Positions 43,810 through 64,000 of a DNA stretch of 64,000 nt are shown one piece after another. The position numbers and the translations under genes were made by a program. The DNA is from Ignavibacteria bacterium (lineage in GTDB: Bacteria > Bacteroidota > Ignavibacteria > Kapaibacteriales > UBA4661): NCBI GenBank assembly GCA_947459425.1, contig CANHDJ010000011.1, positions 11,652-75,651 of the forward strand, given 5' to 3'. The notes under the pieces are model-generated. The model was not told the origin of the DNA, ran no database searches, and saw nothing but the letters and a program-made list of their open reading frames with translations. How positions within the stretch are numbered: the stretch's first letter is position 1; each line of letters opens with the position of its first letter.

Positions 43810-43812
43810 CTC

Positions 43813-49500: not shown

Positions 49501-49622
49501 TGTGCAGTGTGCAGCAGAAAAGGGAGCAAAAGGACACATAGCCATCGCTGTAAAATTTTGATTGTTATAGGCTTATGGGGAGATATGGGGGCAGGTAAAT
49601 GCTGCAATATCATAGCAAACAT
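46566..49622 (-). CDS. Secreted surface protein: six-bladed NHL-repeat propeller, several IPT/TIG-like Ig domains and a T9SS type-A C-terminal sorting domain
   Basis: Signal peptide (WLCVLLLPFLLHTAHA). There are six repeats of GNIYVAD..N.IRKIDGSGNV.TYAGSG. IPT-like segments include TVVITGTGFTGATSVSFGGVPA. The C-terminus SVYPNPVDGELRV...VRLYDMRGGVV...LGAGAYMVVV is typical of TIGR04183-type CTDs. The track ORF (to 49883) was trimmed because its first 87 codons read through a repeat element. Confidence 0.88.
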   Translation of the reverse strand: MFAMILQHLPAPISPHKPITIKILQRWLCVLLLPFLLHTAHAQTVSTYAGAFPGFANGAAATARFNGPGGVCADAAGNIYVADYFNNRVRKIDGSGNVTTYAGTGTAGFANGVAATAQFDNLNGVCADAAGNIYVADISNQRIRKIDGSGNVSTYAGSGTGGFANGAAATAQFSNPFGVCADAAGNIYVADLNNSRIRKIDGSGNVSTYAGSGAFGFVNGAAATAQFDSPVGVCADAAGNIYVADAGNNRIRKIDGSGNVTTYAGSGTAGFANGAAATAQFDYPSGVCADATGNIYVADQFNRCIRKIDGSGNVTTYAGSGGAGSADGCALTAQFGAPAGICADAAGNIYVADNGNSLIRKISPPPPPPTLFTAATATPPFSILGQPYTYTFTANGGAPLTFSLQSGALPPGLSLSGTGVLSGTPTILGTFGPFVVQAANCGGTLASVPISITVGVMGITSFTPNRTSPGTTVVITGTGFTGATSVSFGGVPAASFVVNSNTQITAVVGSGTIVTGGAQLVIVSSPAGLSTLGGFFVGTAGASGSAASGVSMPQSAVLGNFSTSNLSFGAPITLSGSGFTGATGLLIGGVPVTNFVVVNDGTITATVGGVPVNDRVVLTGGAGANADMSGLGLRYNRLPPPRIITASPASFPATGEDIPLAFSGADFLAGARVQASDGRTGVSVGVKSVTAPVLETTFPGILQSVGIKTITITNPDGQTTSTTLTVTLGAAPQLRAESLVRSTTASGSAFSVRLVGTGIFRTATAWLNDAPARVTVPSSTEAIVEIPASFNDVGGITLALRLANTDGQSTSASVRINRRPPPTILGVTLQSGGILRVRGINFLIDIRSTLGGAPLALLSQNSDTAFMAQIPSTFRLTPNSPTVSLLVNNSDRQAHGVLLPRSFFESTASFQAALGAEQSDRVWANTASGLEIAEIVTGKHQQSASQELSVYPNPVDGELRVGGVGMRTVRLYDMRGGVVLEERTVSGVVNVSALGAGAYMVVVEAADGRVLRQRMVKR
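48540..49500. repeat. Six tandem 162-bp coding repeats (NHL blades) with long near-identical DNA stretches
   Basis: The string ACATAGATATTCCCAGCGGCATCGGCGCAGAC recurs at a 162-nt (54-codon) period. Confidence 0.7.
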
Positions 49623-49716: not shown

Positions 49717-49854
49717 AGCCACCCGACGGCGAAGAAGCCGCCGGATGGCGGGGTTCGTGCGGCGTGTGATGGCGTAGGTAACGTAGCGTTTGTGGTGCGA
49801 ATAAGAAAGAGCGGTCTCCCCGTCGGGCGCTTTCTTGAGCGTCCGGCGGGTGGG
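49717..49854 (+). repeat. MITE/REP-like intergenic element, copy A (about 138 bp)
   Basis: AGCCACCCGACGGCGAAGAAGCCGCCGGATGGCG...GGAGCGGTCTCCCCGTCGGGCGCTTTCTTGAGCGTCCGGCGGGTGGG. The ends form imperfect inverted repeats. Confidence 0.65.
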
Positions 49855-49877
49855 CGTAGGCTTGAGCGCGTTATGAC

Positions 49878-50028
49878 AGCCACCCGACGGGCTAAGAAGC
49901 CGCCGGATGGCGCGGTTCGTGCATGGTTCGTGCAATGTGTGATGGCGTAGGTAACGCAGCGGTTGTGGTGCGAAGAAGCAGGAGCGGTCTCCCCGTCGGG
50001 CGCTTTTCTTGAGCGTCCGGCGGGTGGG
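49878..50028 (+). repeat. MITE/REP-like element, copy B (about 151 bp, with an internal 11-bp duplication)
   Basis: Collinear with copy A, with few substitutions by eye. It contains GGTTCGTGCAT GGTTCGTGCAA. Confidence 0.65.
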
Positions 50029-50076
50029 TGTTGGTTGTCGGGTGCTTGGGTGCGTACCTCGTCCTACGCGGCTTCT

Positions 50077-50367
50077 TCACAATGGCAAACCGCCCGACAT
50101 ATCCTGTTTGGAATGGACAATAGCCAATATGATCACATCAGCATCAACGATGCCATAGATAAGCCGATAAGAGTACACCAGAAGTTCACGGATATTCTCG
50201 TCATTGAGCTCCGGCACAATACGCCCCATGCGCGGAAACTCCGCCAGCATTTCGCTTTTACGCACAAGTTCTTGCGTAACGCGCTTGGCATACATAGGAG
50301 AATCGGCTGCAATAAAATTATGCAATCGCTTCAAACGCTCTTTGGCGGGATTTGTCCAGCTTGCCAC
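50077..50367 (-). CDS. Type II toxin, RelE/ParE family
   Basis: (V)ASWTNPAKERLKRLHNFIAADSPMYAKRV...FPRMGRIVPELNDENIRELLVYSYRLIYGI...ILAIVHSKQDM matches the ParE/RelE pattern. The start is GTG at 50367. The rest of track ORF 50077..50838 is read-through of the antitoxin region and repeat copy C. Confidence 0.8.
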   Translation of the reverse strand: MASWTNPAKERLKRLHNFIAADSPMYAKRVTQELVRKSEMLAEFPRMGRIVPELNDENIRELLVYSYRLIYGIVDADVIILAIVHSKQDMSGGLPL

Positions 50368-50570
50368 TGCTCTATCTCGCGCTTGAGGTCGCTGAGTGCC
50401 GTTGTCTGGCTGTCTGCCGCAGCCTGTACGCCTTGCCGAACCTGCTCCAATACATACAGCCGATACATCATTTCTTCGGTCGTGGCGTTCTCTGGTAACG
50501 ATGTGAGTGCTTGTAAAGCAGCGTGTTTGGGGCTGCTGTTCTGACCAACAATAGAGGTAAATGCTTGCAT
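50331..50570 (-). CDS. Putative cognate antitoxin (79 aa)
   Basis: A small ORF immediately upstream of, and overlapping, the toxin. It has the motif EEMMYRLYVLEQVRQGVQAA...LKREIEQW seen in antitoxins paired with this ParE subgroup (from memory). Confidence 0.7.
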   Translation of the reverse strand: MQAFTSIVGQNSSPKHAALQALTSLPENATTEEMMYRLYVLEQVRQGVQAAADSQTTALSDLKREIEQWQAGQIPPKSV

Positions 50571-50649: not shown

Positions 50650-50789
50650 AGCCACCTCGGACGGGGAAGAAGTCGCCGTAGGGCGCGGTTCGTGCAGCGT
50701 TTGACGGCGTAGATAACGCAGCGTTTGTGGTGCGTAAAAGAAGGAGCGGTCTCCCCGCCCGAGGCGCTTTCTTGAGCGTCCGGCGGGTG
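50650..50789 (+). repeat. MITE/REP-like element, copy C (about 140 bp)
   Basis: AGCCACCTCGGACGGGGAAGAAGTCGCCGTAGGGCGCGGTTCGTGCAGCG...GGAGCGGTCTCCCCGCCCGAGGCGCTTTCTTGAGCGTCCGGCGGGTG. It has the same orientation as copies A and B. Confidence 0.65.
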
Positions 50790-50838
50790 TCGTCATTGGC
50801 GCATTGACACAAGCACCGTCAATATACCGCCAGCACAA

Positions 50839-50962
50839 TCACCCACCCCATCCCCATCTTCTCGCTTCCTACAATCCTTTTGCCCTTCTCCCCAACCCTT
50901 TTCCCTCATCCCCCATCCCTTTTCCCCTCTCCCCGACCGACCCAAAGTTTTCCCCATTTCCC
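50839..50962. repeat. Polypyrimidine (C-run-rich) tract with a 21-bp sub-periodicity upstream of the giant gene
   Basis: By my count about 102 of 124 nt are C/T, with at least 14 runs of C3-C5. CCTTTTGCCC, CCCTTTTCCC and CCCTTTTCCCC start at 50876, 50896 and 50917. Confidence 0.6.
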
Positions 50963-51027
50963 GAAAGTCGGACACTATTTTTTGCAAATTCGAGAAAGTC
51001 GGACGTTCATTCGAGAAAGTCGGACAC
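50963..51027. promoter_or_regulatory. Three direct copies of GAAAGTCGGAC(A/G); the last two lie inside a 21-bp tandem ATTCGAGAAAGTCGGAC. Candidate operator array 140-200 bp upstream of the giant ORF.
   Basis: Copies at 50963-50975, 50994-51005 and 51015-51027, read directly from the sequence. Confidence 0.4.
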
Positions 51028-51177
51028 AATAAAAAAAAACATTTCCTTGCTTTTTCGTATTTTTGTAGCCTGTACCGAACATAGTTTTTTTGTTTCTTTG
51101 TGTCGACTCTTCATTCGTATCGGTATCAAACTGTGTTTTCCCTTTCTTGTTGCTTCTCTCATTTCATGGTGAACTTT

Positions 51178-54100
51178 ATGAACCTCTCCCGTACTCGTTT
51201 CGTTGTTGTCAATTTCTTGACGCTCCTTTGTTTTTTTGCCATCGCCGGAACAAATCTATCCTTGTGGGCAGCCACCTTTACCGTTACCAATACCAATGAT
51301 GCCGGAGCAAGCTCTTTGCGGCAGGCTATTCTTGATGCCAATGCCACTGGAGGCGCTACCGCAGTCGCACCACACATCATAGACGCAACGGGCGTAACAG
51401 GGACGATTACTCTAGCTTCAGCACTTCCGGCATTGAATAACCACATCACCATCAATGGTCCCGGTGCGGCTCTGATTGTCAGTGGCAATAACCTCTTCCC
51501 CGTGTTCTTTGCCAGCCAAACAGCACCGTTCACCATTCAGCTTAATAATTTTACGATTACCAATGGTCGGGCGCAAGGTAGTAATGGCGGTACTGGTGGT
51601 GTTGCAGGTGGTGGTGGTGGTGGTGGTGGTTTTGGAGGTGGATTGTTTGTTAATCAAGGAAGCATCACATTACAAAACATGATGTTCTCTGGCAACCAAG
51701 CCATCGGCGGTAATGGTGGTGCGGGCGGTGGTGGCAATGCTCCGGGAGGAATTGGCGGAACCCCATCCCCGTCAGTGCTTGGTACAGGAGGAACAAGCCC
51801 CTCTGGTAATCCGCCAGCAGCAGCGAATTGTGGTGGGAGGAACGGTACATTTGGCGGTGGCGGGAGCGGCGGCGCAATTGGTCCAGCTTTTTGCAACGGA
51901 TATGGCGGTGGTGGCGGTGGATTCGGTGGCGGTGGCGGTGGCGGCAGTTTTGGAGGTGGCGGTGGCTTAGGTGGTGGTCCATTTGGCGGTGCTGGTTCTG
52001 CGGGCAGCGCGTGTTCATATGGTGGTGCTGGTGGTGCTGGTGGTGGGCTTGGTGGTGCCGTATTCGTCGCTTCGGTGGCAACGTTTACGATGACAGGATG
52101 CACCTTTACAAGTAATTCCGCCACTGGTGGAACTGCTGGCAATAATGGTGGTTGTGGTGGTGCCGCTACAAACGGTCAAGGCAAAGGCGGCGCAATCTTC
52201 ATCCAAGCAGGCGCAACGGCAACCGAACTCGCTACAACGTACACCGGGAATACTGCCGGAAGTGCAGGAACGGCATATTTCAATCTTCCGCAAGACAACC
52301 CCAATGTGTGGGGAAATCTGAGTGGAACGTATTATTATCAATCCGGCGACCCGTCTGTGCCGGGGAATTGGAACTCTCTTCTTGGCGGTGGTGGCATTCC
52401 GGCAATTAATTTTACGACGGGCGGCGAAACATTTATTGTTCCGGCGACACGCACCGCAAACATCACCGTTAGCGATATTACCATCGGCTTGGGCGTTACC
52501 TTTCAAGTAGATCTCGGCGGCACACTGACCGTCGGAAGCGGCAGAGCAATCACCAATAATGGTGCGGTTACTGTTGCGGGGCTGTTCCGTCAAGATGGCG
52601 GATCGAGCTTTACTAATGCGGGGACGTTCACCGTCAATGCCGGAGGAACACTGCGAGTTCTGGATAATCCGACCATAACCGGAACGGCATTTGTCTATTC
52701 CGCCGCGACCTCGCTGCTGGAATATACCGGGACAACTGCCCGAATAACCTCCATCGAATTTCCTGCCGCTATGTCCGGCTCGGTAACGGTGGACAATACC
52801 GCCGGAATCACGATGAATGCTCTCAAAACGCTCAGTGCAACAAGTGTGGTGACGTTGACAAACGGAGAGCTTATCAATACGGCGTTTGCTTCCAGACTTG
52901 TTATGAACAATACGACCGCCGGAGCATTTACCCGCACCAACGGCGTTGTGAACGGCTATGTTGAGCGCCTTGTGCCAAGCAACGGTACGCCATATACTAT
53001 TCCTGTCGGTGTCGGCGCTTCGTATTTACCGTTAGAATTTACGCCCACAGCCGGCGCGGGAACAAACATCGTTGCCCGCGCCTACGCTGGTGCAAGTCCG
53101 GGTACCCCCGGATCGGGTATGACAAGTTTGAACGCTTTTGGCTATTGGGAAGTGCTGACGAGTGCCGGGACGCGCAATGGAACGGTAAGCCTCACGCCTT
53201 CCTCAGTGCTGCCAGCCGGAAATGCTGTTGCTTTAGCAGCAACGGTCGGCGGTGCATACAACAGCATTGGTCCTCTGAATTTTGCGGGTGGTGCTAGCAT
53301 TACACAAACCCTTGCGAATGCGTACACCACTACGTCAGGTTTTCTTGTGACGGGTGTGGTGGGGCAGTATTACTACAATAATGCCAACGTATTTCCGGGC
53401 GGTGCAAATAACCCTGCAAACTGGGATACAACACCCGGCGCGGGTTATGGCACGGCGGCAGGAAATTTTACTTCGTTGGGAACGAGCTTTTTCGTTGAAA
53501 ACGGTGCAACCGCAACGCTTACCGCTAATTTGACTATCGGCACGGCTTCATCGGGAACAAATTTCACCATTCAAAGCGGCGGAATGCTGAACACAGTGGG
53601 CTTTGTGCTGACAATAGGTGGCAATAACGGCGCATTTACCGCCCAAAATAACTCTACTATTCGCTTGGCACATATTCAAGGGCTGCACGGCACCGCCAAT
53701 AATCAAGGCGCAATCCAAGTCCCGCTTGCGCCCGTCGGTATCACCATCTCCTATCTCGGCAACGTTAATTTCTTTTTCGACCCGCCGGCACCTGCTGGCG
53801 GGTATTCGATGAATATCGGGGCGACAACGAACAAGCCCGCCCTGACTGTCTGCGGAAATCTTACCATGAATCAAACCGGTCTCAATTCGTGGATGCTTGG
53901 TAGCTCTTTAACCGTAAACGGTACGTTTACCTTGCAAACAGGCAATTTTAATCTGACGGGTGTCGGGGTTTCCACCTTAACCTTGGCAGGTACCGGAAAT
54001 GTGGTGATGAGCGGGCGAGTAATGACCATCGGTACAAATTTTGTCTTGGCAAATCCAAACGACCTGACCATTCAAAACGGTATCGGTCAGTTTATTGTTT

Positions 54101-57100
54101 CCAGTGTGAATCAATTTCCGTTTGTAACGGGTATGCCCATTACTTATCAGCCCGGGTCGCGGTTGGCGTACAACAATCTCGCTCCTGCACTCAGCCCTGG
54201 TTTAGAATGGCCGTCCACGATGGACGGCGACATTCTCACTAATGTTGCTTCGGGGGCAATCACGCTTCTCGCGCCCCGCACTCTTTCCGGCACAGGCACT
54301 ATCAATTTTGCCAACGTCATCAACACCGCATCGGGTTTGCTGACGGTGAATAACACCAACGCCGGAGCCGTAAGCTACTCTTCGTCGGGGCGCATACTCG
54401 GTCCTCTTCGCCGCTTACTTCCTGATGCGGGCGGTGCAGGCACGTGGCAATTCCCCATGGGCGTGGGCGCAAGCCAACTTCCGTTTGCGATTGTCAATCC
54501 TGCCGTAGGAAACTCATCACCCTTAATTGAAGTAGAAGCATTTGCCGGACCAAGCGGTAGTGCCGATGGTACAACGCTTACCGCTCTTTCGGGGGCGGAA
54601 TACTGGCAGGCGCGTTTGGTGAGCGGTACATTCTCCACAGGGCAGATGCAAGCCGCAAAAACAGGCATTGCTGCGCCGACAGTCGTTGGCTCCTCGACCA
54701 CACTTGCGGGAACGATGTATGCGTCCACTGGTCCGAACACGTACCCGGGCGGTGTGCCTCCAGCAGCGCGGCGCTCCGTCGCCGAGACGCTTACGGGCGC
54801 ATTCACATACTTTGCGCTTGGAACACAGATTATCCCTTCCATCTACTACTATTCTGCCGGCGACCCGAGCAATGCGACGAACTACTGGTCGAACATTGGC
54901 GGAACGGGTTTTCAAGGCGTAAGTTTTGGTACGTCCGGGCAGACATTCATCATTCCAAACACCTACACAACGACTGTTCCGGCAGCAAATATCGCGCTTT
55001 CAGCGGGGGTAACGCTGCGAGTGGCGAACGGCGGAACGCTGAATGTCGGCGCTAATGCCGTAACAGGTGCCGGAAGTTTCGACCTCCAAGCAGGCGGAAC
55101 ACTGAGAACATCGAATACCCAAGGAGTGAACGGACCAGGACCCGGCGCAGGGTTTGGGGCTATTCAAACAACGACCATCAACTACGACCCGCAAGGCAAC
55201 TATTACCTTGATGTGTCGTCTATGAGCAATCTCAATTTTGCTGCTGTTGCCGGAAAGCCTGCTATCACCGATGCACGAACCCTCACTATCGTCGGTAATA
55301 ATCAAGGAACACTCCGCACGAGTTTGAATGTGAGCATCTCATTAACGATTAACTGCTCCGTGGCGGGTGCGGGGCTGAATCTTATCGGAACTACCCCACA
55401 GACTCTCACGCTCAGCGGCACAGGAAGTCAGGTGCAAGCAGGCTCACTCAGGGTGGGAGAGTATTTCACTTTGGTAAACGGCACCGTGTTGACCGTTCAG
55501 AATGCCGCTTCGCTGCAAATGGTGAGTACAATTAGTACGCCGCCGTTTCCTGCTGTTATCGGAACGCCCGTGAATTACGCATCAGGCGGTATTTTGCGCT
55601 ACAACGACATTATCACGGGAACGATGCCGACCGGGGCAGAACTGCCTGCTACTATGCTCGGTGATGTAGTTGTCAACCGCACGGGACCTGTTTCCCTCAG
55701 CGCACCGACAACGTTGAACGGTACGCTTACCTTCTCGTCTGGGCGTATTCAAACCACGGCAACTAATCTTTTGACCATCGGCAATCCTGCCCCGACTGCC
55801 ATCATCGGTGCAACAGCGACTATGTGTGTGCAAGGTCCGCTCGCCCGCGCTATTACCACTGCCGCGAGCACGTACACCTTTCCCGTCGGTGGTGGCACAG
55901 CACCAACATACACACCCGTAACCTTTGCCTACACATCTGCCGCACCTGCTTCCACCGTTGTAACCGTCGAGGGCTTCAACGCTGCTACTCCCGGCACACC
56001 CGGCGGCGCGTTGGGAAGCCTCAGTTCGACGGAGTATTGGCGTGTGAATCCGAATAATGCTGTTCCCAACGTAACGCTCACATTTACCCGCAATGCAGCC
56101 ATTCCAGCAGGGAACACGCTCAGTAATTCCGCAACGGCAGGAGGAACATACAATCCTGTCGCAAGCAACATCGCCAGCCCAAGTATCAACAATGCCCCAG
56201 CGCTTGCGTCGCTTGCTGCGGGTGATGGTTTTTACAGTATTGCTATCCCGGCGGTTGCCTATTACTATGAATCCGGCGACCCCGCAGCACCGGGAAGCTG
56301 GGGAACAACCTCTGGTGCAGGTTTAGGAACAGCCGCCACGAACTTTACGACACCGGGAAGCATATTCGTGGTGGAAAATACTTACACAACGGCTGCGGCA
56401 TCAGCAAATATCTCACTCGGTGCAAGTGTTACGATGCGAGTGCTGAATGGCGGTACGTTGAATCTCGGTATTCGTTCGCTAATTGGTACAGGTTCGTTTG
56501 ATTTGCAAGCGGGCGGTACACTACGCACTTCTCGTACGGACGGCATCAACGGAATATCGGCAGCAACAGGTGCAATCCAAGTAACGGGCAGCGCAACCTA
56601 CAATAACGCCGCTAATTATTGGTTCGACAGCCCAGTTGCTGCCGCTGACCTCAATTTTGCGGCGCAAGGTACAAAAGCAGCTATCACGCAAGCAAACAAT
56701 ATCACTATTACTAGCCCGACTCCCGGTGTACAATGGACGCTTGGTACTCCTCTGATAGTGGATGGCACACTCAGCATCACGCAGTCGCAGCTAAGACTGA
56801 TTGCTGCTGCCTCTTCTACATTGACGCTAAACGGACCGACTCTCATAAATACACAGGGAGAAATACGGGTTGGCAGTAATTTTCAGGTCAATAACCTTGG
56901 CACAATGACTGTTGGGGCAAATGCCTCATTTACTATTGCACCCACAACCCTAGCGCCGATACCGTTTATTGGCAATAGCCCTATATACACCAATACAACA
57001 AGTAGATTGTTCTATTCGAACAGCATCGGAATCACCACAGGCGCAGAACTGCCTGCCACCATGCCGGGAGAGCTTGCTGTTAATGGCTCTGCACCACTCA

Positions 57101-60100
57101 CCTTAGCGGCGGGCTTAACAACCATCACGGGATTCTTTGGTGTTGCACCTTCGTCGTTCCTCAACACCGGAAGCACAAATATGCTCCGTATTGACCAAGT
57201 AGCAGGTGGTGACGTACTTGGATATCTAGGGATAGTCAATGGTCCCGTGCAGTGGAATTTGCTGGTAGGAACCTCCGCCAATCGTTGGCTGCCCGTAGGC
57301 AAATCTGCTACACCGCTTTGGGTACAGTTCGATTACAATGCCGCTTCGGGCGGGCTGTTGGAATTTGAGGCGTTTAATACAGGCAGTGGCGGTATGGTCG
57401 GCACAGGGATTTCCACCGTGAACGGCAGCGAATACTGGACAGTCAAGCAACTCAGTGGTGGTGCGGTATCAATTCAACCAACCTTGGTTAGTGCGGCAGG
57501 TACCGGATCCGGAAAAGCTATTGCGACATCAACTTTGCAAATGGGAACCTATAACACCGCCAGCCCTACGACATATAATGCTTTCGGTTTCTCCGGTAAT
57601 TCGTATAATCAAGCCAACAATAGTTTTTCTCTCCTAGGTCCAACGACGTATATAGCGATGGGGAATGCTATTCCGACGTATTATTATGAATCCGGCGACC
57701 CCTCTGTGCCGGGAAGCTGGGGAACAACCTCCGGTGCTGGTTTGGGAACACCTGCGACCAGTTTTGCTACACCCGGACAGCTCTTTGTCGTTGAAAATGG
57801 CTATACGACAAGTCCGGTTCCCGCAGCAAATATTTCTCTCGGCAATAGTGTAACGATGCGTGTGCTGGCAGGCGGTACGTTGAACATGGGTACTGTTTCC
57901 CTTGCTGGCACAGGTTCATTTGATTTGCAAGCGGGCGGTACGCTTCAAACCTCCAACCCTCTCGGTATCAACGGTATTGGCGGAGCGATTGATGTTCCTG
58001 CAGCAAATATCACCTACAGCCCAACGGCAAACTATATCTTCGGCGCACTGGCAGCGAGTGGAACGTGTAATCTCGGATCAGTCGGAGGAAAGCCCGCTAT
58101 TACGCAATCTCAAAATGTAACCATCAATCCGGGTGCCACAAGATCATGGTCAATGAATACACCACTGAACGTGGCGGCAACGGGCGCACTGACTATTTCG
58201 TCAGGACAATTCCAGTATTCCGGCGCTACGCTGACACTGAACTCTGCCACCAATACTCTTGCTTCGGGAGCGGAAATACTGATATTGGGTGGCACAACGC
58301 TGAATAATCTTGGCACCTTTACGGTTGATGGCGTGTTTACACCGTTTAGCCAGCCCCTTACGTTCACGGGAAATTCACCCACATTCACTGCCGCAGGCGA
58401 ACTCCGCTACGGCAATGGCTTGGGAACATACAACACCAGCCTTGAGTTTCCCGCTTCCGCGATGCCGGGTAGGGTGTCGCTTTATGGTGGGATTACCGTA
58501 AACTTAACAGCACCGCGCACCATTGGCGCAACAGGAATCTTACAGCTTGGCGGTATCTTGAATACAAGCGGCGGACTTTTGACCATCAATAACCCGCTAA
58601 CAGGCGCTATCACTGGCGGTTCAGCAACGTCGTATATTGACGGACCGCTTGCTCGTGCTTTGCCTGCCGGAGCAGGTGTAGGGCAGTGGCTGTTTCCTGT
58701 TGGTAAAGTCGGAACATATCTGCCCTTCGCTATCAACACTCCAACCTCCGGCGGTGCAGGTTCGACCGTGCAAGTAGAGGCATTTAACAGCGCTCCTGTC
58801 GGTGGCTCTGCCGATGCGACCACCCTTCTCGGACCTCTCGGCAGCGAATATTGGCAAGCACAAGTAACCACAGCACCAGGGTCATTTACGAGTGGTTTCG
58901 TGCAAGCAGCCAGAGCGGGTATAACGGCAACAAACAGTATCGGCGCAAGCACGATTGCGCCTCCGACGGCAACCACGTATTCCTCCAATGGCGGCAACAC
59001 GCTGGGAACACTAAGCGCGATTTCCTCGCTTACCCGCACTGCGACGGATAATCTTGCCGCGCCAACGTATTTTGCGGTGGGAACGGCAATAATTACCTAC
59101 TACTACAACAACGCCAATGTCTTTCCAGGCGGTGCAAATAACCGTTTGAATTGGGATACCAGTCCCGGCGTAACTTACGGCACAGCAGCACCAAACTTCA
59201 CCACCGCAGGAACAGCATTTTCGATTGACGCTGGCTCGACGGCAGTGCTGACGGCAGACCTTCCTTTTGGTGCGGGCGCAAACAACGTAACACTCACCGT
59301 TCCAAGCGGCGCAACGCTGAACACGGGTATATCTGCCGTACAGTTTGGAGGAAATAATAGCCGCTTCAATCTTCAAAACGGCGGAACCCTGCAAACAAGC
59401 CATGCAAGCGGTATCAATGGTACCAGTAATGCTGATGGTGCGGTACAAATCAACCCGCCTCTGACAACAGGCGTAGTCATCAGCTACGGACCTACGGCAA
59501 ATTATGTTTTGGGGGCAGTCGGCGCAACCACGACGGCATATTTTCAGGATATTTCCGGCAACAAACAAGCAATCACCCAAGCCGCAAGCCTTACCGTTAA
59601 TCCGGGTGCCTTACGAACGTGGCTTATCTCCGGCGGACCGCTCACGATTTCTCCGGGAGCATTAACTGTGCAAAGCGGTACGTTGTCTCTGAGTGCAAGC
59701 CTTCTGACGCTTGGCGGTGCGGGCAGCATCGTACAAAATGCAGCAGCGCTCCAACTGAACGGTGGCGCACAGATAGTCAATACGGGCGGTCTAACTATTC
59801 AAAGTGGCGGTAGGTTTGAAGTAGCAGGTGTTACCACGCTTCCGATTGTTGCCACAAACCCGATTAGCTACGCGCTTGGCAGCAATCTGAGTTATTTTTC
59901 GCATCCTGCACTCTCAACAGGGCTGGAATTTCCTTCCCCGATGGATGGCAATGTCTCGGTGCAAAGCGGTGGTCCGCTTATGCTCAATGGCGCAAAATCA
60001 CTCAATGGCATCTTTGGAATATCGGGTGTGCTTATCACCGATAATACAAATATGCTCACGGTTGCCAATACTGCGGCGGCAGCAGTTATCTACGGTGCAG

Positions 60101-63100
60101 GTGGTGAGGTGCGCGGACCCATGCGCCGTGCGTTGCCAAACGCAGGCGGCGCGGGCACATGGCTTTTCCCCGTCGGCAAAGGCGGAACATACTTGCCCTT
60201 TGCCGTGGTGAATCCTGCTGCGGGTAGCGTCGGCGCAGTGGTCGAAGCAGAGGCATACAACAGCACAAGTGGCGGTACGCCCGACGGCACGACGATTCTC
60301 GCGGCTTCACTTTCCGCCACCGAATACTGGCGGGCGCAAGTGGCAAGCGGGACGTTCTCAAACGCTCTCACGCAGGTCGGTAAAGCTGGCTTAACAGCAA
60401 CGAACATCATCGGCTCTTCAACCACTATGCCGTCTGGCGGGACATATGTATCCAACGGTGTAAATACCTTTTCCGCTGGAACACCGCCCACGCTCACCCG
60501 CACGGTGGCGGACAACCTCGCGGCGCAAACGTATTTTGCTGTCGGTACTGTTCCGCCGCCGCCGCCGATGAACGTCCAAAACAACGCCCCGCCTTTCGGC
60601 ATTCCGCCCACCACGCCTGCTTTCAATACCATGAACGCAGCTGTGGGAACAAACATCTCCATTCCTTTCAGTGCAAATCTGAATCCCGGAACGGTGAATA
60701 CACCACAATTCCGTGTGAATGGCACGATGCGCGGCTTGCGGAATGTAACAACTTACGGCGTGTCGGGTTTGAACACCGCGACGCTGACGGGCTTCACTTC
60801 AGGTCTTACTACCGGTTTTGCGCCAAATGAACAAGTATTTGTCAGCGTTACCAATGCCCAAAGCACGGGCGGCGCATTCACGCGCCCCTTTGTGATGGGC
60901 TTCCGCACACGTGCAGGAAGCGGACCGGCCCAATTTCAGCCACAATCAGTTCCCGGTGTAACACAGACATCTGGCGTGTGTGCGGGCGACTTCGACGGGG
61001 ATGGCAATGTGGATGTCGCTTTTGCATCTCAATCCGGGAATCAAGTCGTGATTCTCCGCAACCTCGGCGGAGGTGTCTTTGGTGCTCCGACTACCGTTAG
61101 TGTGGGATCAACTCCTACCGGTATTGCTGCCGGGGATATTGATAACGACGGCGACCTTGATATTGCTGTCACCAATTCGGCAAATACCATTAGCATCATT
61201 CAGAATAACGGTTCGTTCTCGTTTGCAGTTTTGGCTACTCTTTCTACGTCAAATGATCCGCGAGGTTTTGCTTTCGCTGACTTCAATGCTGACGGAATTT
61301 TGGATATTATCACGACCGCTCGGGGATCCGCGAATGTGAACTATTTTCGCGGTTTGGGTGGCGGTTCTTTTGCTGCCGGAACAGTTATACCTATTGGCTC
61401 TAGTGATGCCTACTGTCTTACTGTCGCTGATGTGGATAATGACGGTGATATTGATGCAATTATTTCTATATCCTTCGCTGATACGATACGTTTTCTTTTG
61501 AATGACGGGAACGGTAATTTTTCCCTTGGATCTGGATTAGCGGCTGGTGGTTTCCCGCGTGAGATTGTTGCTGGTGATTGGGATAACGATGGCGATATGG
61601 ATTTAGCCGTCGCAAATAGCGGCGGTCTCTCTGTCTTGACATTCATCAATAATCCAGTCGGAACCTTCACTGCTGGTGCCACTATGCCTATCGGTTTCGG
61701 CACACAACCCATTGGCTTGACATCGGGGGATTTTGACGGGAATGGCTTCCTTGACCTTGCCACAGGAAATTTGGCAAATGCCACATCTACCATTCTGATG
61801 AATACTGCTGGGGTATTTGCAGTCTCTTCTACTGTTTCAACTGGCTGGAATCCCATTAGTAATGCGGCAGCAGATTTCGACGGTGACGGCGATATTGACA
61901 TTATGACGGCAAATAGTGGGGCAGGAGCTAATCCCACACTGCTTATCAATGGTCTGTCAATGACTGTTCAAAACAACGCGCCGCCTTTTGGTATTCCGCC
62001 CGTTACGCCGACCTTTAACACGATGAATGCTGCTCCCGCAACCAATATCAGTATTCCGTTTAATCAAAATCTCAACGCCGGAACGGTAACAGCACCAAAC
62101 TTCCGCGTTCACGGCACGATGCGTGGCTTGCGGACAGCCACCTACGGTGTTGCTCCGGCAAATACTGCCACGCTGACGGGCATCACTCCAAGTTTCCTGC
62201 CGAATGAACAAGTATTTGTCAGCGTTACCAATGCCCAAAGCACGGGCGGCGCGAATACACGCCCCTTTGTGATGGGTTTCCGCACGGCGGCAGGCTTGGG
62301 TCCGGCGACGTTTGTGCAAAATGCATCTTACCCGACGGCGAATTTCGGTTATGCCATGACCACCGCCGACATCAACAACGACAACCGATTGGACATGATT
62401 ACCGCCGACCGTAGTGGTAGCAACATTCGTGTTCGTACGGGCAATGGCGACGGGACGTTTGCAGGAACATTCACCGACTTGCCCGTAAATAGCGATCCGG
62501 GACGTGTTCGTACTGCGGACTTCAATAACGACGGGCTGCCCGACCTTGTTGCTTCTTCCGAAGGTTCAAACAACGTCTCGGTACGCATGAATACAACAGG
62601 CACGCCCGGCACGTTTGGCGCGACAGTGAATTTGAACGCCGGTTCTGTCACGTATTCCGTTACGGTTGGCGATTACAACGGCGACGGCAATATGGACGTT
62701 GCTGCGACCCATCAAAGCGCGATTCGTGTATTCTTGGGGAATGGCGACGGAACATTTCAAGCCGTTGCGTCGTATTCACACGCAGGAGCAGCAGGATTTA
62801 GCAGCATTGCCGAAACAGGCGACTTGGACGGCGACGGCGATATGGATATTGCTGTTTCGCACGAAGGTTCAAACACGATTTATTCCATGCTGAATGATGG
62901 TACGGGGAAATTTGCACAAGAATATGCACAAGCCACAGGCGGCACAAGTTCTCACACGATTGCGCTTGGTGATGTGAACGCGGACGGGCGTTTAGATGCG
63001 GTTGTAACCGCCTACGGCACAAACGATGTCCGCGTATTCATTGGTGCGGGGAACGGCTCCTTTGCCGCGCCTGTTGTGTATTCGACGGGTGTCGGTTCTG

Positions 63101-64000
63101 CACCGCGCACGGTCGTGTTGGCAGATTTTGACGGCGTAAACGGCTTGGATATTGCCACCGCAAATTTAGGAACAAACACCATCGGTATTTTGCTGAACAA
63201 CGGTGGCGGTACATTTGCTGCGGTCAGCTCATACCCAACGTCGGGCATTCAGCCCGCAGGTCTTGCGATGGGGGATTTTGATGGGGATAACGATATAGAC
63301 TTGCTGGTGAATTACAGCGGCTCTGCTCTGGCAACGGTGCATCTGAACGCGCCTATTCCGACTACGTTCTACTACCGTTCCGGCGACGCTGGATTGCCGG
63401 GAAGCTGGTTCAGCACACCGAATCCGACAGGCGGCACTCCGGCAACAGGTTTTACCAGCCCCGCAACGGACTTCTACGTCATGGGCGAAAATCCGATTAC
63501 CCTGCCAACCACTGTCGCAACGGTGAATGCATCGTTTATGATTGGTCCAAACGTCAGCCTCCACGTAACCACGCCATCGGTGCTGGCAGTGGCAAACGGC
63601 GTAACGATAACGAACAACGGCTTTTTGAATGTGTCGGGCAATACCGTCCAATCATCGTCGCTGCGGCTCGTGGGAACAGGCGCGGTCGTGGGTAATACGG
63701 TAAAGTATTGGAGTACAAACGCGACGCTGGAATATCAACCGACTGGTTCGCGTTTAACGACCGATGTAGAGTTTCCACCTGCTATGTACGGCTCGGTACT
63801 TATTAGTGGTTCGCAGGTTATTATGCAGAGTAATAAGACTATCACTGGCACAACGACCATACAGCCTACTGGTGCCTTATCTACCAATGCTGCTTTTGTT
63901 CCGACCTTTGACGGTAGCCTTGTGAATGCAGGCGGCACAATGGATATTGGTCCATCAGCATCGGTGATTTTCAACAGCCGTGTTGTTGGTCCTTGGATTG
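51178..64000 (+). CDS. Giant secreted surface / adhesin-like protein, 3'-partial (more than 4,270 aa in the window). Domains: signal peptide, Gly-rich parallel-beta-helix-like head, 6-7 tandem modules of about 470 aa, and two Ig-like + FG-GAP/VCBS 7-blade cassettes.
   Basis: Frame +1 was checked codon by codon. The last upstream stop is TAG at 51082-51084, and no stop occurs through 64000. ATG candidates are 51166 and 51178 (MNLSRTRFVVVNFLTLLCFFAIAGTNLSLWA). The ORF is not in the supplied track because it has no stop in the window. No other + frame-1 ORF is listed between 51 and 64 kb. Confidence 0.9.
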   Translation, partial: MNLSRTRFVVVNFLTLLCFFAIAGTNLSLWAATFTVTNTNDAGASSLRQAILDANATGGATAVAPHIIDATGVTGTITLASALPALNNHITINGPGAALIVSGNNLFPVFFASQTAPFTIQLNNFTITNGRAQGSNGGTGGVAGGGGGGGGFGGGLFVNQGSITLQNMMFSGNQAIGGNGGAGGGGNAPGGIGGTPSPSVLGTGGTSPSGNPPAAANCGGRNGTFGGGGSGGAIGPAFCNGYGGGGGGFGGGGGGGSFGGGGGLGGGPFGGAGSAGSACSYGGAGGAGGGLGGAVFVASVATFTMTGCTFTSNSATGGTAGNNGGCGGAATNGQGKGGAIFIQAGATATELATTYTGNTAGSAGTAYFNLPQDNPNVWGNLSGTYYYQSGDPSVPGNWNSLLGGGGIPAINFTTGGETFIVPATRTANITVSDITIGLGVTFQVDLGGTLTVGSGRAITNNGAVTVAGLFRQDGGSSFTNAGTFTVNAGGTLRVLDNPTITGTAFVYSAATSLLEYTGTTARITSIEFPAAMSGSVTVDNTAGITMNALKTLSATSVVTLTNGELINTAFASRLVMNNTTAGAFTRTNGVVNGYVERLVPSNGTPYTIPVGVGASYLPLEFTPTAGAGTNIVARAYAGASPGTPGSGMTSLNAFGYWEVLTSAGTRNGTVSLTPSSVLPAGNAVALAATVGGAYNSIGPLNFAGGASITQTLANAYTTTSGFLVTGVVGQYYYNNANVFPGGANNPANWDTTPGAGYGTAAGNFTSLGTSFFVENGATATLTANLTIGTASSGTNFTIQSGGMLNTVGFVLTIGGNNGAFTAQNNSTIRLAHIQGLHGTANNQGAIQVPLAPVGITISYLGNVNFFFDPPAPAGGYSMNIGATTNKPALTVCGNLTMNQTGLNSWMLGSSLTVNGTFTLQTGNFNLTGVGVSTLTLAGTGNVVMSGRVMTIGTNFVLANPNDLTIQNGIGQFIVSSVNQFPFVTGMPITYQPGSRLAYNNLAPALSPGLEWPSTMDGDILTNVASGAITLLAPRTLSGTGTINFANVINTASGLLTVNNTNAGAVSYSSSGRILGPLRRLLPDAGGAGTWQFPMGVGASQLPFAIVNPAVGNSSPLIEVEAFAGPSGSADGTTLTALSGAEYWQARLVSGTFSTGQMQAAKTGIAAPTVVGSSTTLAGTMYASTGPNTYPGGVPPAARRSVAETLTGAFTYFALGTQIIPSIYYYSAGDPSNATNYWSNIGGTGFQGVSFGTSGQTFIIPNTYTTTVPAANIALSAGVTLRVANGGTLNVGANAVTGAGSFDLQAGGTLRTSNTQGVNGPGPGAGFGAIQTTTINYDPQGNYYLDVSSMSNLNFAAVAGKPAITDARTLTIVGNNQGTLRTSLNVSISLTINCSVAGAGLNLIGTTPQTLTLSGTGSQVQAGSLRVGEYFTLVNGTVLTVQNAASLQMVSTISTPPFPAVIGTPVNYASGGILRYNDIITGTMPTGAELPATMLGDVVVNRTGPVSLSAPTTLNGTLTFSSGRIQTTATNLLTIGNPAPTAIIGATATMCVQGPLARAITTAASTYTFPVGGGTAPTYTPVTFAYTSAAPASTVVTVEGFNAATPGTPGGALGSLSSTEYWRVNPNNAVPNVTLTFTRNAAIPAGNTLSNSATAGGTYNPVASNIASPSINNAPALASLAAGDGFYSIAIPAVAYYYESGDPAAPGSWGTTSGAGLGTAATNFTTPGSIFVVENTYTTAAASANISLGASVTMRVLNGGTLNLGIRSLIGTGSFDLQAGGTLRTSRTDGINGISAATGAIQVTGSATYNNAANYWFDSPVAAADLNFAAQGTKAAITQANNITITSPTPGVQWTLGTPLIVDGTLSITQSQLRLIAAASSTLTLNGPTLINTQGEIRVGSNFQVNNLGTMTVGANASFTIAPTTLAPIPFIGNSPIYTNTTSRLFYSNSIGITTGAELPATMPGELAVNGSAPLTLAAGLTTITGFFGVAPSSFLNTGSTNMLRIDQVAGGDVLGYLGIVNGPVQWNLLVGTSANRWLPVGKSATPLWVQFDYNAASGGLLEFEAFNTGSGGMVGTGISTVNGSEYWTVKQLSGGAVSIQPTLVSAAGTGSGKAIATSTLQMGTYNTASPTTYNAFGFSGNSYNQANNSFSLLGPTTYIAMGNAIPTYYYESGDPSVPGSWGTTSGAGLGTPATSFATPGQLFVVENGYTTSPVPAANISLGNSVTMRVLAGGTLNMGTVSLAGTGSFDLQAGGTLQTSNPLGINGIGGAIDVPAANITYSPTANYIFGALAASGTCNLGSVGGKPAITQSQNVTINPGATRSWSMNTPLNVAATGALTISSGQFQYSGATLTLNSATNTLASGAEILILGGTTLNNLGTFTVDGVFTPFSQPLTFTGNSPTFTAAGELRYGNGLGTYNTSLEFPASAMPGRVSLYGGITVNLTAPRTIGATGILQLGGILNTSGGLLTINNPLTGAITGGSATSYIDGPLARALPAGAGVGQWLFPVGKVGTYLPFAINTPTSGGAGSTVQVEAFNSAPVGGSADATTLLGPLGSEYWQAQVTTAPGSFTSGFVQAARAGITATNSIGASTIAPPTATTYSSNGGNTLGTLSAISSLTRTATDNLAAPTYFAVGTAIITYYYNNANVFPGGANNRLNWDTSPGVTYGTAAPNFTTAGTAFSIDAGSTAVLTADLPFGAGANNVTLTVPSGATLNTGISAVQFGGNNSRFNLQNGGTLQTSHASGINGTSNADGAVQINPPLTTGVVISYGPTANYVLGAVGATTTAYFQDISGNKQAITQAASLTVNPGALRTWLISGGPLTISPGALTVQSGTLSLSASLLTLGGAGSIVQNAAALQLNGGAQIVNTGGLTIQSGGRFEVAGVTTLPIVATNPISYALGSNLSYFSHPALSTGLEFPSPMDGNVSVQSGGPLMLNGAKSLNGIFGISGVLITDNTNMLTVANTAAAAVIYGAGGEVRGPMRRALPNAGGAGTWLFPVGKGGTYLPFAVVNPAAGSVGAVVEAEAYNSTSGGTPDGTTILAASLSATEYWRAQVASGTFSNALTQVGKAGLTATNIIGSSTTMPSGGTYVSNGVNTFSAGTPPTLTRTVADNLAAQTYFAVGTVPPPPPMNVQNNAPPFGIPPTTPAFNTMNAAVGTNISIPFSANLNPGTVNTPQFRVNGTMRGLRNVTTYGVSGLNTATLTGFTSGLTTGFAPNEQVFVSVTNAQSTGGAFTRPFVMGFRTRAGSGPAQFQPQSVPGVTQTSGVCAGDFDGDGNVDVAFASQSGNQVVILRNLGGGVFGAPTTVSVGSTPTGIAAGDIDNDGDLDIAVTNSANTISIIQNNGSFSFAVLATLSTSNDPRGFAFADFNADGILDIITTARGSANVNYFRGLGGGSFAAGTVIPIGSSDAYCLTVADVDNDGDIDAIISISFADTIRFLLNDGNGNFSLGSGLAAGGFPREIVAGDWDNDGDMDLAVANSGGLSVLTFINNPVGTFTAGATMPIGFGTQPIGLTSGDFDGNGFLDLATGNLANATSTILMNTAGVFAVSSTVSTGWNPISNAAADFDGDGDIDIMTANSGAGANPTLLINGLSMTVQNNAPPFGIPPVTPTFNTMNAAPATNISIPFNQNLNAGTVTAPNFRVHGTMRGLRTATYGVAPANTATLTGITPSFLPNEQVFVSVTNAQSTGGANTRPFVMGFRTAAGLGPATFVQNASYPTANFGYAMTTADINNDNRLDMITADRSGSNIRVRTGNGDGTFAGTFTDLPVNSDPGRVRTADFNNDGLPDLVASSEGSNNVSVRMNTTGTPGTFGATVNLNAGSVTYSVTVGDYNGDGNMDVAATHQSAIRVFLGNGDGTFQAVASYSHAGAAGFSSIAETGDLDGDGDMDIAVSHEGSNTIYSMLNDGTGKFAQEYAQATGGTSSHTIALGDVNADGRLDAVVTAYGTNDVRVFIGAGNGSFAAPVVYSTGVGSAPRTVVLADFDGVNGLDIATANLGTNTIGILLNNGGGTFAAVSSYPTSGIQPAGLAMGDFDGDNDIDLLVNYSGSALATVHLNAPIPTTFYYRSGDAGLPGSWFSTPNPTGGTPATGFTSPATDFYVMGENPITLPTTVATVNASFMIGPNVSLHVTTPSVLAVANGVTITNNGFLNVSGNTVQSSSLRLVGTGAVVGNTVKYWSTNATLEYQPTGSRLTTDVEFPPAMYGSVLISGSQVIMQSNKTITGTTTIQPTGALSTNAAFVPTFDGSLVNAGGTMDIGPSASVIFNSRVVGPWI
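51577..52190 (+). repeat. Extreme glycine-rich low-complexity coding region, including a (GGT)8 microsatellite at 51607-51630
   Basis: It translates as GSNGGTGGVAGGGGGGGGFGGGLF...GYGGGGGGFGGGGGGGSFGGGGGLGGGPFGGAG...GGAGGAGGGLGG, interspersed with GGAIF/FxxN-like beta-helix motifs and five Cys residues. Confidence 0.8.
52330..60552 (+). repeat. Six tandem coding super-repeats (modules M1-M6: 1038, 1476, 1416, 1419, 1419 and 1455 nt). A seventh begins at 63367.
   Basis: Module starts are marked by YYYxSGDPxxPGxW (52330, 54844, 56260, 57679, 63367) or YYYNNANVFPGGANNxxNWDT (53368, 59098). Recurring internal motifs are GTGSFDLQAGGTL(R/Q)TS, KPAITQ and LEFP...M.G. The terminal subdomain reads W.FPVG...YLPF...EAFN...SEYW. 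Confidence 0.8.
60553..63366 (+). repeat. Two tandem cassettes of about 1.4 kb, each an Ig-like (SbsA/Big_5-like) domain plus a seven-blade FG-GAP/VCBS propeller
   Basis: NVQNNAPPFGIPPTTPAFNTMNAA... aligns with TVQNNAPPFGIPPVTPTFNTMNAA.... Each cassette has seven D-x-D/N-x-D-G-x-x-D blades (for example GDFDGDGNVDVAF, GDIDNDGDLDIAV). A 50-nt perfect DNA identity links 60826-60875 to 62203-62252. Confidence 0.8.

Follow-up and report, generated by a model that had tools for sequence, protein, structure and literature searches.

The end of the window (the whole 64,000-nucleotide stretch of DNA that was analysed) is occupied by one very large open reading frame on the forward strand. Frame +1 is bounded upstream by a TAG codon at 51082-51084, and translation of 51085-64000 gave 4,305 codons with 0 stops; the remaining five frames contained 149, 192, 79, 102 and 276 stops over 51178-63999. 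The probability of such a run arising by chance, estimated from base composition for the window part alone, was ~1e-79. In the list of closed ORFs, 58 of at least 60 aa overlapped 51166-64000, every one off-frame or antisense, in agreement with the first-pass annotation, which had proposed a giant gene cut by the window edge and had regarded about 60 short ORFs as its shadows. The window was matched at 100% by two public contigs, ERZ27263785 k141_1401040 (79,258 bp) across 20,660 bp and ERZ28613002 scaffold_2323 (36,319 bp) across 20,027 bp, which may both have been assembled from a single set of reads and thus perhaps not be independent. The gene spans 5,480 codons in the former (16,442 nt; 79258-62817+1) and 5,448 in the latter, runs off the contig end in both, and continues past the window, stop-free, for at least 1,202 further codons. 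The window part (51178-64000) covers its first 4,274 codons; the gene as a whole exceeds 5,476 codons (>16.4 kb), and its C-terminus is unassembled because both public contigs end inside the gene.

Two in-frame start codons are available, ATG 51166 and ATG 51178. The first is used by the public gene call and had been adopted in the first-pass annotation; the second is more likely the true start, because nucleotide conservation with the homologous giant gene in L028 begins exactly there and ATG 51166 is unconserved. Translation from ATG 51178 begins with MNLSRTRFVVVNFLTLLCFFAIAGTNLSLWA (aa 1-31; 51178..51270, + strand), predicted to be a Sec signal peptide: its N-region is basic, its core is hydrophobic and it has an LWA|A site. 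A similar leader opens at least three other module-bearing Kapabacteria proteins (P0009, P0006 and P0042), and the signal peptide suggested earlier is plausible. A repeat search (family D4) detected three direct copies of TTCGAGAAAGTCGGAC(A) at 50958..51030 (+ strand), 150-220 nt upstream of the giant-gene start, and exact GAAAGTCGGAC occurs three times in the window, always at these positions. In L028 two such copies precede the homologous gene by a comparable distance, within flanking DNA that has diverged. The repeats are a candidate regulator-binding or promoter element.

The host is an uncultured Candidatus Kapaibacteriota (Kapabacteria; Bacteroidota-Chlorobiota relatives) bacterium and the gene is chromosomal; NCBI assigns Candidatus Kapaibacteriota/Kapabacteria to the 90% clusters of the window proteins and to the closest giants. 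A neighbouring gene in the window encodes type IX secretion system (T9SS) cargo with PF18962 (29.5 bits, cutoff 27). Its C-terminal domain (CTD) had been recognised previously, but the adhesion locus suggested on the strength of it was not borne out, as the gene lies 1.5 kb from the giant gene on the opposite strand, with a ParE toxin-antitoxin pair and repeat elements between them. No T9SS machinery genes were found within the window. A methyl-accepting chemotaxis protein is also encoded there, which is uninformative on gliding.

Domain organisation of the encoded protein

The protein consists, in order, of the signal peptide, a head with a Gly-rich insert, six modules, a PPPPP linker, two pairs of an Ig-like domain and a propeller, and the opening part of a seventh module. 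The head (aa 32-384; 51271..52329, +) contains the motifs TFTVTNTNDAGASSLRQAI...ITINGPG and others that are GGAIF/FxxN-like, and is also present on P0005. The glycine-rich region described earlier is its insert, at ~aa 134-292 of the translation (51577-52053, +). Searches of the head against Pfam and NCBIfam (E up to 10) and PDB gave no match, but 3 of its 108 short homologues carried PF02415 (Chlamydia Pmp repeat), one of them together with PF13229 (Beta_helix). The beta-helix assignment made previously thus finds support in homologues but not in a family match to the head itself, which is probably a beta-helix cap.

Self-BLAST and alignment delineated six modules, one of 346 aa and five of 472-492 aa, with mutual identities of 28-57%; repeats of about 470 aa had been noticed in the first-pass annotation. 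Module 1 (aa 385-730; 52330..53367, +; self-BLAST, alignment A1 and hmmsearch with the module profile) is of a short type without profile positions 80-189. Module 2 (aa 731-1222; 53368..54843, +), of the long type, spans profile positions 1-464 (E 7e-188). It is followed by module 3 (aa 1223-1694; 54844..56259, +), module 4 (aa 1695-2167; 56260..57678, +), module 5 (aa 2168-2640; 57679..59097, +; AlphaFold2 model and Foldseek) and module 6 (aa 2641-3125; 59098..60552, +), and the remaining copies, like module 2, were placed by self-BLAST, alignment and hmmsearch. The same three methods located the start of module 7, again of the short type (aa 4064-4274 onward; 63367..64000, +), inside which the window ends and the gene runs on. 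Only Y, G, F, T, L, E, P and M residues occupy invariant columns over the seven copies. The module sequence had no match in Pfam, NCBIfam or the PDB sequences, as the earlier failure to name a family for it had implied.

Modules 6 and 7 are separated by (CCG)5, read directly from the sequence as a PPPPP linker (aa 3126-3130; 60553..60567, +), and by two cassettes. The first (60568..61947, +; Pfam) comprises an Ig-like domain (~aa 3131-3255; weak Big_5, 5e-4, 21.1 bits against a cutoff of 23.6) and a seven-bladed FG-GAP/VCBS beta-propeller (~aa 3256-3590; FG-GAP_3 1.4e-47, FG-GAP 1.7e-22). The second (61960..63357, +; Pfam and self-BLAST) repeats this arrangement: its Ig-like domain (aa 3595-3715) shares 63-76% identity with that of the first cassette and is followed by a second seven-bladed propeller (aa 3716-4060). 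Each propeller has seven DxDxDG-type motifs (aa 3270-3565 and 3730-4032), which bears out the FG-GAP assignment made previously, and FG-GAP families were the only Pfam matches in the whole 4,274 aa. The propellers resemble those of integrin-alpha/VCBS proteins in score (FG-GAP_3, 266 bits) and in the ~50-aa spacing of the Ca2+-loop motifs, but differ in being two internal cassettes that follow Ig-like domains inside a bacterial beta-helix fibre.

Predicted structure of the module

The AlphaFold2 model of module 5 (pLDDT 84.2, pTM 0.85) was all-beta, with a predicted right-handed beta-helix of ~300 aa followed by a C-terminal beta-sandwich of ~175 aa; the latter gave a pLDDT of 83.7 when modelled by itself. 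The best Foldseek matches of module 5, all weak, were TibA (4q1q, 8.8e-3), Ag43 and the HK620 and Sf6 phage tailspikes. Foldseek searches of the models returned nothing at E<=1e-3, and the beta-sandwich matched no PDB structure at this threshold. The term adhesin-like therefore refers to the general beta-helix fold class. A right-handed beta-helix, as predicted for the module, forms the adhesion stalk of Ag43, TibA and Chlamydia Pmp-type proteins, and the Ag43/TibA group (4q1q, 7kob, 7koh) provided the best matches, a likeness of fold class only (TM 0.17-0.25). PF02415 of Chlamydia Pmp, found on a few head homologues, does not match the giant itself.

Relatives and export signals

An exhaustive profile search with the module recovered 1,865 representative proteins at E<=1e-3 and 97 at E<=1e-30; this class of protein is common in environmental bacteria. 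A local HMM placed a T9SS CTD at the end of 61 of the best 150 matches, among which the only ends observed were a T9SS CTD or truncation. The CTD was of type A in 50 of the 75 best matches of at least 2,000 aa, and a CTD was present on all 9 matches of at least 4,000 aa when the four closest giants, labelled partial at NCBI, were left out. Pfam PF18962 was found on 8 relatives (7 above the gathering score) and on 10 of 16 short homologues, and type B CHU_C on one relative at 19 bits only. The T9SS association drawn earlier from the neighbouring gene is strengthened by these sequence comparisons, in which complete module-bearing relatives end in type A CTDs.

Among the giant type A cargo proteins of Kapabacteria and Bacteroidota are P0033 (MCU0424161.1, 'IPT/TIG domain-containing protein'), a complete 4,289-aa Kapabacteria protein with PF18962, and P0011, P0013, P0016, P0023 and P0030. 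Like the giant, they are very large, have a signal peptide and contain the beta-helix/beta-sandwich module (profile E 1e-74 to 1e-126), and at least one is from the same phylum. IPT/TIG domains occur in cargo such as P0033 and also in the closest relatives of the giant. These proteins are complete, with PF18962 at the very C-terminus, whereas the giant is truncated; they mostly combine partial modules with NHL, LRR and Ig domains, and the giant, unlike them, has full-length modules in tandem as well as FG-GAP propellers.

The four closest relatives, P0004 (MCU0426425.1, 'FG-GAP-like repeat-containing protein, partial', 6,038 aa), P0005 (MBD1209843.1), P0006 (TAE24656.1) and P0009 (MBL7992119.1, 'VCBS repeat-containing protein, partial'), are all partial at NCBI and lack their C-termini; in this branch, to which the giant belongs, no CTD was seen. 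They are homologous to the giant over most of their length at 38-48% identity, with blocks of 84-98%, and share its modules, propellers and Ig-like domains, but differ in module number and order, and some carry a lectin-like Laminin_G_3 domain that the window part of the giant lacks. In P0004 the final module is followed by IPT/TIG domains (Pfam TIG 4e-13), and L027 ends in near-identical sequence. Residues 1618-1782 of the giant, which include the front part of module 4, are 91% identical to P0005 2052-2216, and residues 2224-2537 are 90% identical to P0005 2184-2497; between the two blocks the offset jumps by the length of one module (474 aa). P0007, in which residues 194-473 are 90% identical to module 6, has a module order shuffled relative to the giant. 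These alignments show that the gene evolves via recombination between modules, relatives differing by exactly one module and in module order.

Discussion

The giant protein is probably a fibre or adhesin that is exported by Sec and the T9SS, anchored at the surface and evolving through module shuffling. It would be made with a Sec signal peptide and cross the inner membrane. By analogy with its complete relatives, its C-terminus is expected to carry IPT/TIG domains and a type A CTD, which would take it through the T9SS outer-membrane translocon and then be cleaved off. Type A T9SS cargo in Bacteroidota is bonded covalently to anionic LPS (PMC9143113). The giant, too, would be fixed to the cell surface at its C-terminal end, so that the N-terminal beta-helix head would sit farthest from the cell, on the end of a long, stiff stalk. 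This stalk would consist of serial beta-helix and beta-sandwich modules, broken by two FG-GAP propellers of the Ca2+ type, which are likely to bind ligands, and we infer that the protein probably serves in adhesion, whether to a surface, to a polymer or to another cell.

It is unlikely that the protein is instead a mobile gliding adhesin of the SprB type, with a type B CTD and a PorP/SprF-like partner, dragged along the surface for gliding. SprB of Flavobacterium johnsoniae comprises roughly 6,500 aa, and the giant approaches it in size (>5,476 aa) and in its repetitive all-beta build. SprB is a T9SS-exported (type B CTD), repetitive all-beta surface filament from the same superphylum (PMC9143113), a likeness in outline that for surface location and T9SS export would extend to the giant. 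The host has T9SS cargo, and in Bacteroidota gliding is tied to the T9SS (PMC9143113, PMC10202324). However, a Pfam scan of the 4,274 aa gave no SprB repeat, no sprF/porP-like gene adjoins the giant gene, module-bearing relatives end in type A rather than type B CTDs, and no motility role is indicated.

More doubtful is a secreted or surface enzyme, in which the beta-helix modules, like those of pectate lyases and phage tailspikes, would act as polysaccharide lyases or depolymerases rather than as a passive stalk. The weak Foldseek matches do include tailspike depolymerases and pectate-lyase-like viral proteins, and there is a weak similarity (E 0.02) between the sandwich and an accessory domain found in a Bacteroides GH98 xylanase. 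Against this, TM-scores were 0.1-0.25, no catalytic family was found in Pfam or NCBIfam, the invariant residues are structural with no conserved acidic/basic catalytic set in the seven copies, and at least six serial copies suit a stalk more than an enzyme.

A different export route is less probable again. The protein could be exported as a type V autotransporter, or by type I secretion as an RTX adhesin, and its likeness to T9SS cargo would then reflect only shared shuffled domains; the self-associating passengers of TibA/Ag43 are the best single structural match, FG-GAP DxDxDG motifs bind Ca2+ as in RTX adhesins, and the C-terminus that would distinguish these routes lies in the unassembled part. 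The type V barrel used by Ag43, TibA and Pmp was nevertheless seen in no relative of the giant, and the complete Kapabacteria giants carry a T9SS CTD. Substrates of type I secretion are not known to use an N-terminal Sec signal, which the giant is predicted to have. Least likely of all is an assembly chimera or decaying pseudogene: the two public contigs do break within ~96 nt of each other inside the gene, related JGI contigs have frame shifts (L026, frame 1 to 3; L027, frame 1 to 2) and the terminal sequence of P0004 looks out-of-frame, but the gene is open for >16.4 kb, its domain order is coherent, a module is modelled with high confidence, Tandem Repeats Finder detected no DNA tandem array other than short GGT runs, and the module copies have diverged so far as protein that an assembler cannot collapse or duplicate them, which rules out the assembly artefact considered in the first-pass annotation.

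We therefore favour a surface-anchored, T9SS-exported fibre or adhesin. Although its repeat unit is absent from curated domain libraries, the kind of protein is a familiar one.

Extent of the giant gene

The first-pass annotation had proposed a giant open frame (51166-64000, frame +1) that continues past the end of the window. The sequence bears this out: the TAG at 51082-51084 is present, and the 4,305 codons of frame +1 from 51085 to the window end contain no stop, against 149, 192, 79, 102 and 276 stops in the other five frames across 51178-63999. The probability of so long an open frame arising from base composition is ~1e-79. Within the interval the list of closed ORFs holds 58 of at least 60 aa, every one off-frame or antisense, as had also been claimed; a track of closed ORFs only therefore hides the largest gene of the window and puts these shadows in its place. 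In-frame ATGs are found at 51166 and 51178, and the public gene call takes 51166. When the DNA was aligned with the region upstream of the homologous giant gene on the JGI metagenome contig L028, conservation started exactly at ATG 51178 (ATGAACCTCTC...GTTGTCAATTTCTTGAC), and ATG 51166 showed none. Residue numbers here therefore count from 51178, and 4,274 aa of the protein then lie inside the window.

Source contigs were found by an exact-sequence look-up of the complete neighbouring DUF2461 protein (40559-41218), which is present on two ENA metagenome contigs, ERZ27263785 k141_1401040 (79,258 bp) and ERZ28613002 MEHR18-2 scaffold_2323 (36,319 bp). These are 100% identical to the window across 20,660 and 20,027 bp, respectively. 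The giant is called at 5,480 aa on the former and 5,448 aa on the latter and, by arithmetic, each call reaches the contig end; it follows that the gene exceeds 16.4 kb and that its 3' end is unassembled. The two break points lie ~96 nt apart inside the gene, which suggests that a repeat ~16.4 kb into it, impassable for short-read assembly, caused both breaks; the two contigs may be non-independent assemblies. The gene was broken in every assembly examined, and all four of its closest relatives are flagged 'partial' at NCBI.

Tandem Repeats Finder detected no DNA array in the giant gene. Since, in addition, the copies of its repeated ~470-aa module are only 28-57% identical to one another, assembly collapse or expansion was excluded. 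Explanations at the DNA or RNA level were dropped as well, because there were no tandem DNA repeats and Rfam gave a single RNA gene in the window, a tRNA-Pro (CGG; 43736-43810, +). We consider it very likely that this is a real gene for an exported surface protein, and the idea of an artefact or a pseudogene carries little weight.

Anatomy of the giant protein

The protein opens with a putative signal peptide (aa 1-31); in this leader (MNLSRTRFVVVNFLTLLCFFAIAGTNLSLWA/A), n-, h- and c-regions of the expected kind can be recognised by eye. A similar leader recurs in two of the closest giant relatives, P0009 (MBL7992119.1) and P0006 (TAE24656.1), and in a further module-bearing protein, P0042. 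The head (aa 32-384) contains the motifs quoted in the first-pass annotation and a Gly-rich insert. For its first 118 mature residues, 108 short homologues were found in diverse bacteria; three of these carry PF02415 (Chlamydia polymorphic membrane protein repeat), one of the three also PF13229. In the giant itself, the head matched no Pfam family at E values up to 10, PF02415 and PF13229 included. Given this result and the count of 3/108, we treat the GGAIF/FxxN resemblance to Pmp-type proteins as a lead only. A beta-helix head is plausible from the sequence.

Six modules follow (aa 385-3125), each opening with [FY]YY-x-SGD/NNAN. Module 1 is of a short type (346 aa) that lacks profile positions 80-189, and modules 2-6 are 472-492 aa long. 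A PPPPP tract (aa 3126-3130) is encoded by (CCG)5; phase variation at this tract was considered and rejected, since slippage would remain in frame. Two cassettes come after the tract, each consisting of an Ig-like domain and then an FG-GAP propeller with seven DxDxDG-type repeats, and the giant contains 14 motifs of this type as two sets of seven. The match of the Ig-like domain to Big_5 is weak and under the cutoff (21.1 bits), and the propellers are well supported in Pfam (FG-GAP_3, 266.4 bits, cutoff 26.9; FG-GAP, 107.4 bits, cutoff 22.1). Module 7, again of the short type, starts at aa 4064 and runs past the window end. The protein is rich in Gly (14.9%), Thr (12.9%), Ala (11.7%) and Asn (8.2%), and Lys, Glu, His and Cys are very scarce, a composition typical of extracellular beta-solenoid proteins. 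The whole-protein Pfam scan gave FG-GAP families only; an enzymatic role for the giant appears very improbable.

The module is a predicted all-beta unit of no catalogued family

The module matched no curated family in Pfam-A, nor any in NCBIfam at E values up to 10, its profile had 0 matches at E<=1 among PDB sequences, and P0008, a protein built of modules only, has 0 Pfam families. We ran AlphaFold2 on module 5 using an alignment of 22 sequences. The model (pLDDT 84.2, pTM 0.85) is all beta, with many short strands at regular intervals and, after them, a compact sheet domain. In Foldseek searches of the PDB, the best matches were right-handed beta-helices of adhesins and tailspikes, namely TibA (4q1q; E 8.8e-3, TM 0.17/0.25), Ag43, the HK620 and Sf6 tailspikes, Ssp and EspC, none of which reached E<=1e-3 and all of which had low TM-scores; likeness to the type V autotransporters Ag43 and TibA is thus at the level of fold only. 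A Foldseek search of viral models had the same outcome, with nothing at E<=1e-3.

When modelled alone, the C-terminal 178 aa of the module formed a beta-sandwich (pLDDT 83.7), for which Foldseek found no convincing solved counterpart in the PDB; the best matches were a GH98 accessory domain (E 0.02) and MYDGF (TM 0.49). Naming the sandwich MYDGF-like or GH98-accessory-like was rejected, as a TM below 0.5 is too weak. On these models, the module is read as a predicted beta-helix stalk of ~300 aa and a beta-sandwich of ~175 aa of no assigned family.

The size of the family was estimated by an exhaustive search of 1.84 billion representative proteins with a profile built from the seven window copies. 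This gave 1,865 proteins at E<=1e-3, 630 at E<=1e-10 and 97 at E<=1e-30. The top matches were giants of 2,000-6,038 aa, in which as many as 16 stretches matched, and distant matches mostly covered the sandwich half alone (profile positions ~265-463). Word-indexed searches returned only proteins of approximately query length and never giants, for which an exhaustive profile search is needed. The module can reasonably be put forward as a candidate new domain family.

Secretion route

Export signals were sought in the relatives with a local HMM built from the C-terminal domains (CTDs) of short homologues and of the neighbouring NHL-repeat gene. A terminal T9SS type A CTD was detected by this HMM in 61 of the 150 best module matches and in 50 of the 75 among them with a length of 2,000 aa or more. 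It was present in all nine matches of at least 4,000 aa, the four closest NCBI-'partial' giants being left out. Pfam PF18962 confirmed eight CTD-bearing relatives, seven of them over the gathering score; these include P0033 (MCU0424161.1), a complete 4,289-aa 'IPT/TIG domain-containing protein' from Candidatus Kapabacteria. Among short homologues obtained by word-indexed search, 10/16 carry PF18962. Close relatives that extend further have IPT/TIG domains after the last module, as in P0004 (MCU0426425.1, 6,038 aa; Pfam TIG, 4e-13), and the end sequence of the JGI contig L027 is near-identical to this stretch of P0004.

In the window, PF18962 was found on the NHL-repeat protein (1,015 aa; 46566-49613, -) with 29.5 bits against a cutoff of 27, which suggests that T9SS signals are in use in the organism; inspection by eye also showed IPT-like segments and a PPPPPP linker in this protein. 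No T9SS machinery genes were detected within the window. By analogy with its relatives, the giant is probably exported by the T9SS as a type A cargo, and another secretion route is very unlikely. In Bacteroidota, type A cargo loses its CTD and becomes linked to anionic LPS (PMC9143113; review, PMC10202324), and the giant would be processed and anchored in the same manner.

A gliding adhesin like SprB, also a surface protein, was weighed as an alternative. The Pfam scan of the giant, with its FG-GAP families only, showed no SprB repeats; moreover, the relatives carry type A CTDs, CHU_C appeared on one relative under threshold (19 bits), and no sprF/porP-like partner gene lies nearby. We regard a SprB-like protein as very unlikely.

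Mosaic evolution and the shared 5' region

The giant is 44-48% identical overall to P0004 and P0005 (MBD1209843.1), with blocks of 84-98%. Residues 1618-1782 correspond to P0005 2052-2216 (91%) and residues 2224-2537 to P0005 2184-2497 (90%), so that the offset shifts by 474 aa, that is, by one module. Such a shift is as expected from unequal recombination at the common GTGSFDLQAGGTL stretch. In another module-bearing protein, P0007, a segment like module 6 stands before a segment like the end of module 5 (giant aa 2548-2919 compared). The offset and the shuffled order together show that the giant family is mosaic, and at the level of sequence they are evidence of unequal recombination, both inside a giant gene and between different ones.

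Upstream of the giant gene, TTCGAGAAAGTCGGAC occurs as three direct repeats (50958-51030). The L028 giant has two copies of GAAAGTCGGAC upstream at a comparable distance (L028 1016-1057), where the flanking DNA has diverged. The three matches to the 11-mer in the window, with one mismatch allowed, are not significant alone (14/100 shuffles reach 3), and the argument for an upstream element therefore rests on the clustering and on conservation in L028. The TTCGAGAAAGTCGGAC repeats are a possible operator or promoter element common to the giant-gene family.

Several relatives appear interrupted. The JGI contig L026 passes from frame 1 to 3 near nt 3336-3591, L027 passes from frame 1 to 2 near nt 2978-3345 and has a stop at 8155, and the C-terminus of P0004 has out-of-frame-looking sequence directly after an 'LPPP' motif in the IPT/TIG region. 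Assembly errors could explain these interruptions, as could genuine decay or slippage.

Genomic surroundings

At NCBI, the closest giant relatives are entered under Candidatus Kapabacteria/Kapaibacterium and, in one case, under 'Ignavibacteria bacterium'; they are named hypothetical, FG-GAP-like or VCBS repeat proteins. The 90%-identity clusters of the phytoene synthase-like protein and of a 758-aa protein of the window include NCBI entries labelled 'Candidatus Kapaibacteriota bacterium'; the latter (41300-43576, -) has no Pfam family and has relatives of at least 90% identity in Candidatus Kapaibacteriota MAGs. A scan of GTDB representative genomes with the last 680 aa of the giant gave FG-GAP look-alikes only, at identities of <=35%, and hence no close relative of the gene. 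JGI metagenomes scanned with module 7 yielded three relatives (53-66% identity), two frame-shifted and none with a clean C-terminus.

The remaining part of the window is ordinary chromosomal sequence, with genes for an OmpA-family protein, a prolyl oligopeptidase, a SurA-like PPIase, LptF/G, aminotransferases, a TonB-dependent-like barrel, chorismate synthase, an ABC exporter, an AraC regulator, a 7TMR-DISM sensor histidine kinase (12703-14985, +) and a HAMP-MCP chemoreceptor (23170-25230, +), whose sequence hints at chemotaxis in this uncultured lineage. The opposite strand carries, directly upstream of the giant gene, a ParE-family toxin (96 aa, PF05016; 50077-50367, -) and, upstream of and overlapping it, a 79-aa partner that is a probable antitoxin (50331-50570, -). 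In the interval from the NHL-repeat T9SS gene to the giant gene, this pair is flanked by three copies of an intergenic element of ~135 nt (49725-49860, 49898-50034 and 50660-50797). The copies are 71-87% identical to the reference copy over a 98-nt core, and a REP-like element, a MITE or a small RNA is conceivable.

Discussion

The first-pass interpretation was essentially right. We favour, as the probable reading, a beta-helical fibre that is exported by the T9SS, anchored at its C-terminus, and presents FG-GAP propellers and an N-terminal head. That it functions in adhesion is somewhat better than an even prospect. In bacteria, giant repetitive surface proteins form a recognised class (PMC11573180), and the present findings do not overturn current understanding. 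Our literature search found nothing relevant on giant proteins or type IX secretion in Kapabacteria, and a preprint on giant genes (10.1101/2023.11.21.568195) mentions neither the Kapabacteria lineage nor Bacteroidota, T9SS or FG-GAP. New here are the uncatalogued module and a lineage of mosaic giants in Kapabacteria, of which not one has an assembled end.

A bolder proposal, which we hold to be rather unlikely, is that the module represents an undescribed, widespread family of T9SS-cargo domains, and that Kapabacteria possess a repertoire of giants that have the upstream GAAAGTCGGAC element and the leader in common and exchange modules by recombination, giving a set of co-regulated, fast-diversifying surface fibres. 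If true, this set would be analogous to variable surface-protein systems and could help the bacteria attach, within microbial mats, to cells of partners or prey. The module itself, a confidently modelled all-beta two-domain unit that is absent from Pfam and NCBIfam, occurs in ~1,900 representative proteins, many of its best matches being T9SS cargo, and it offers a pointer to cell-surface biology in a phylum from which very few members have been cultured.
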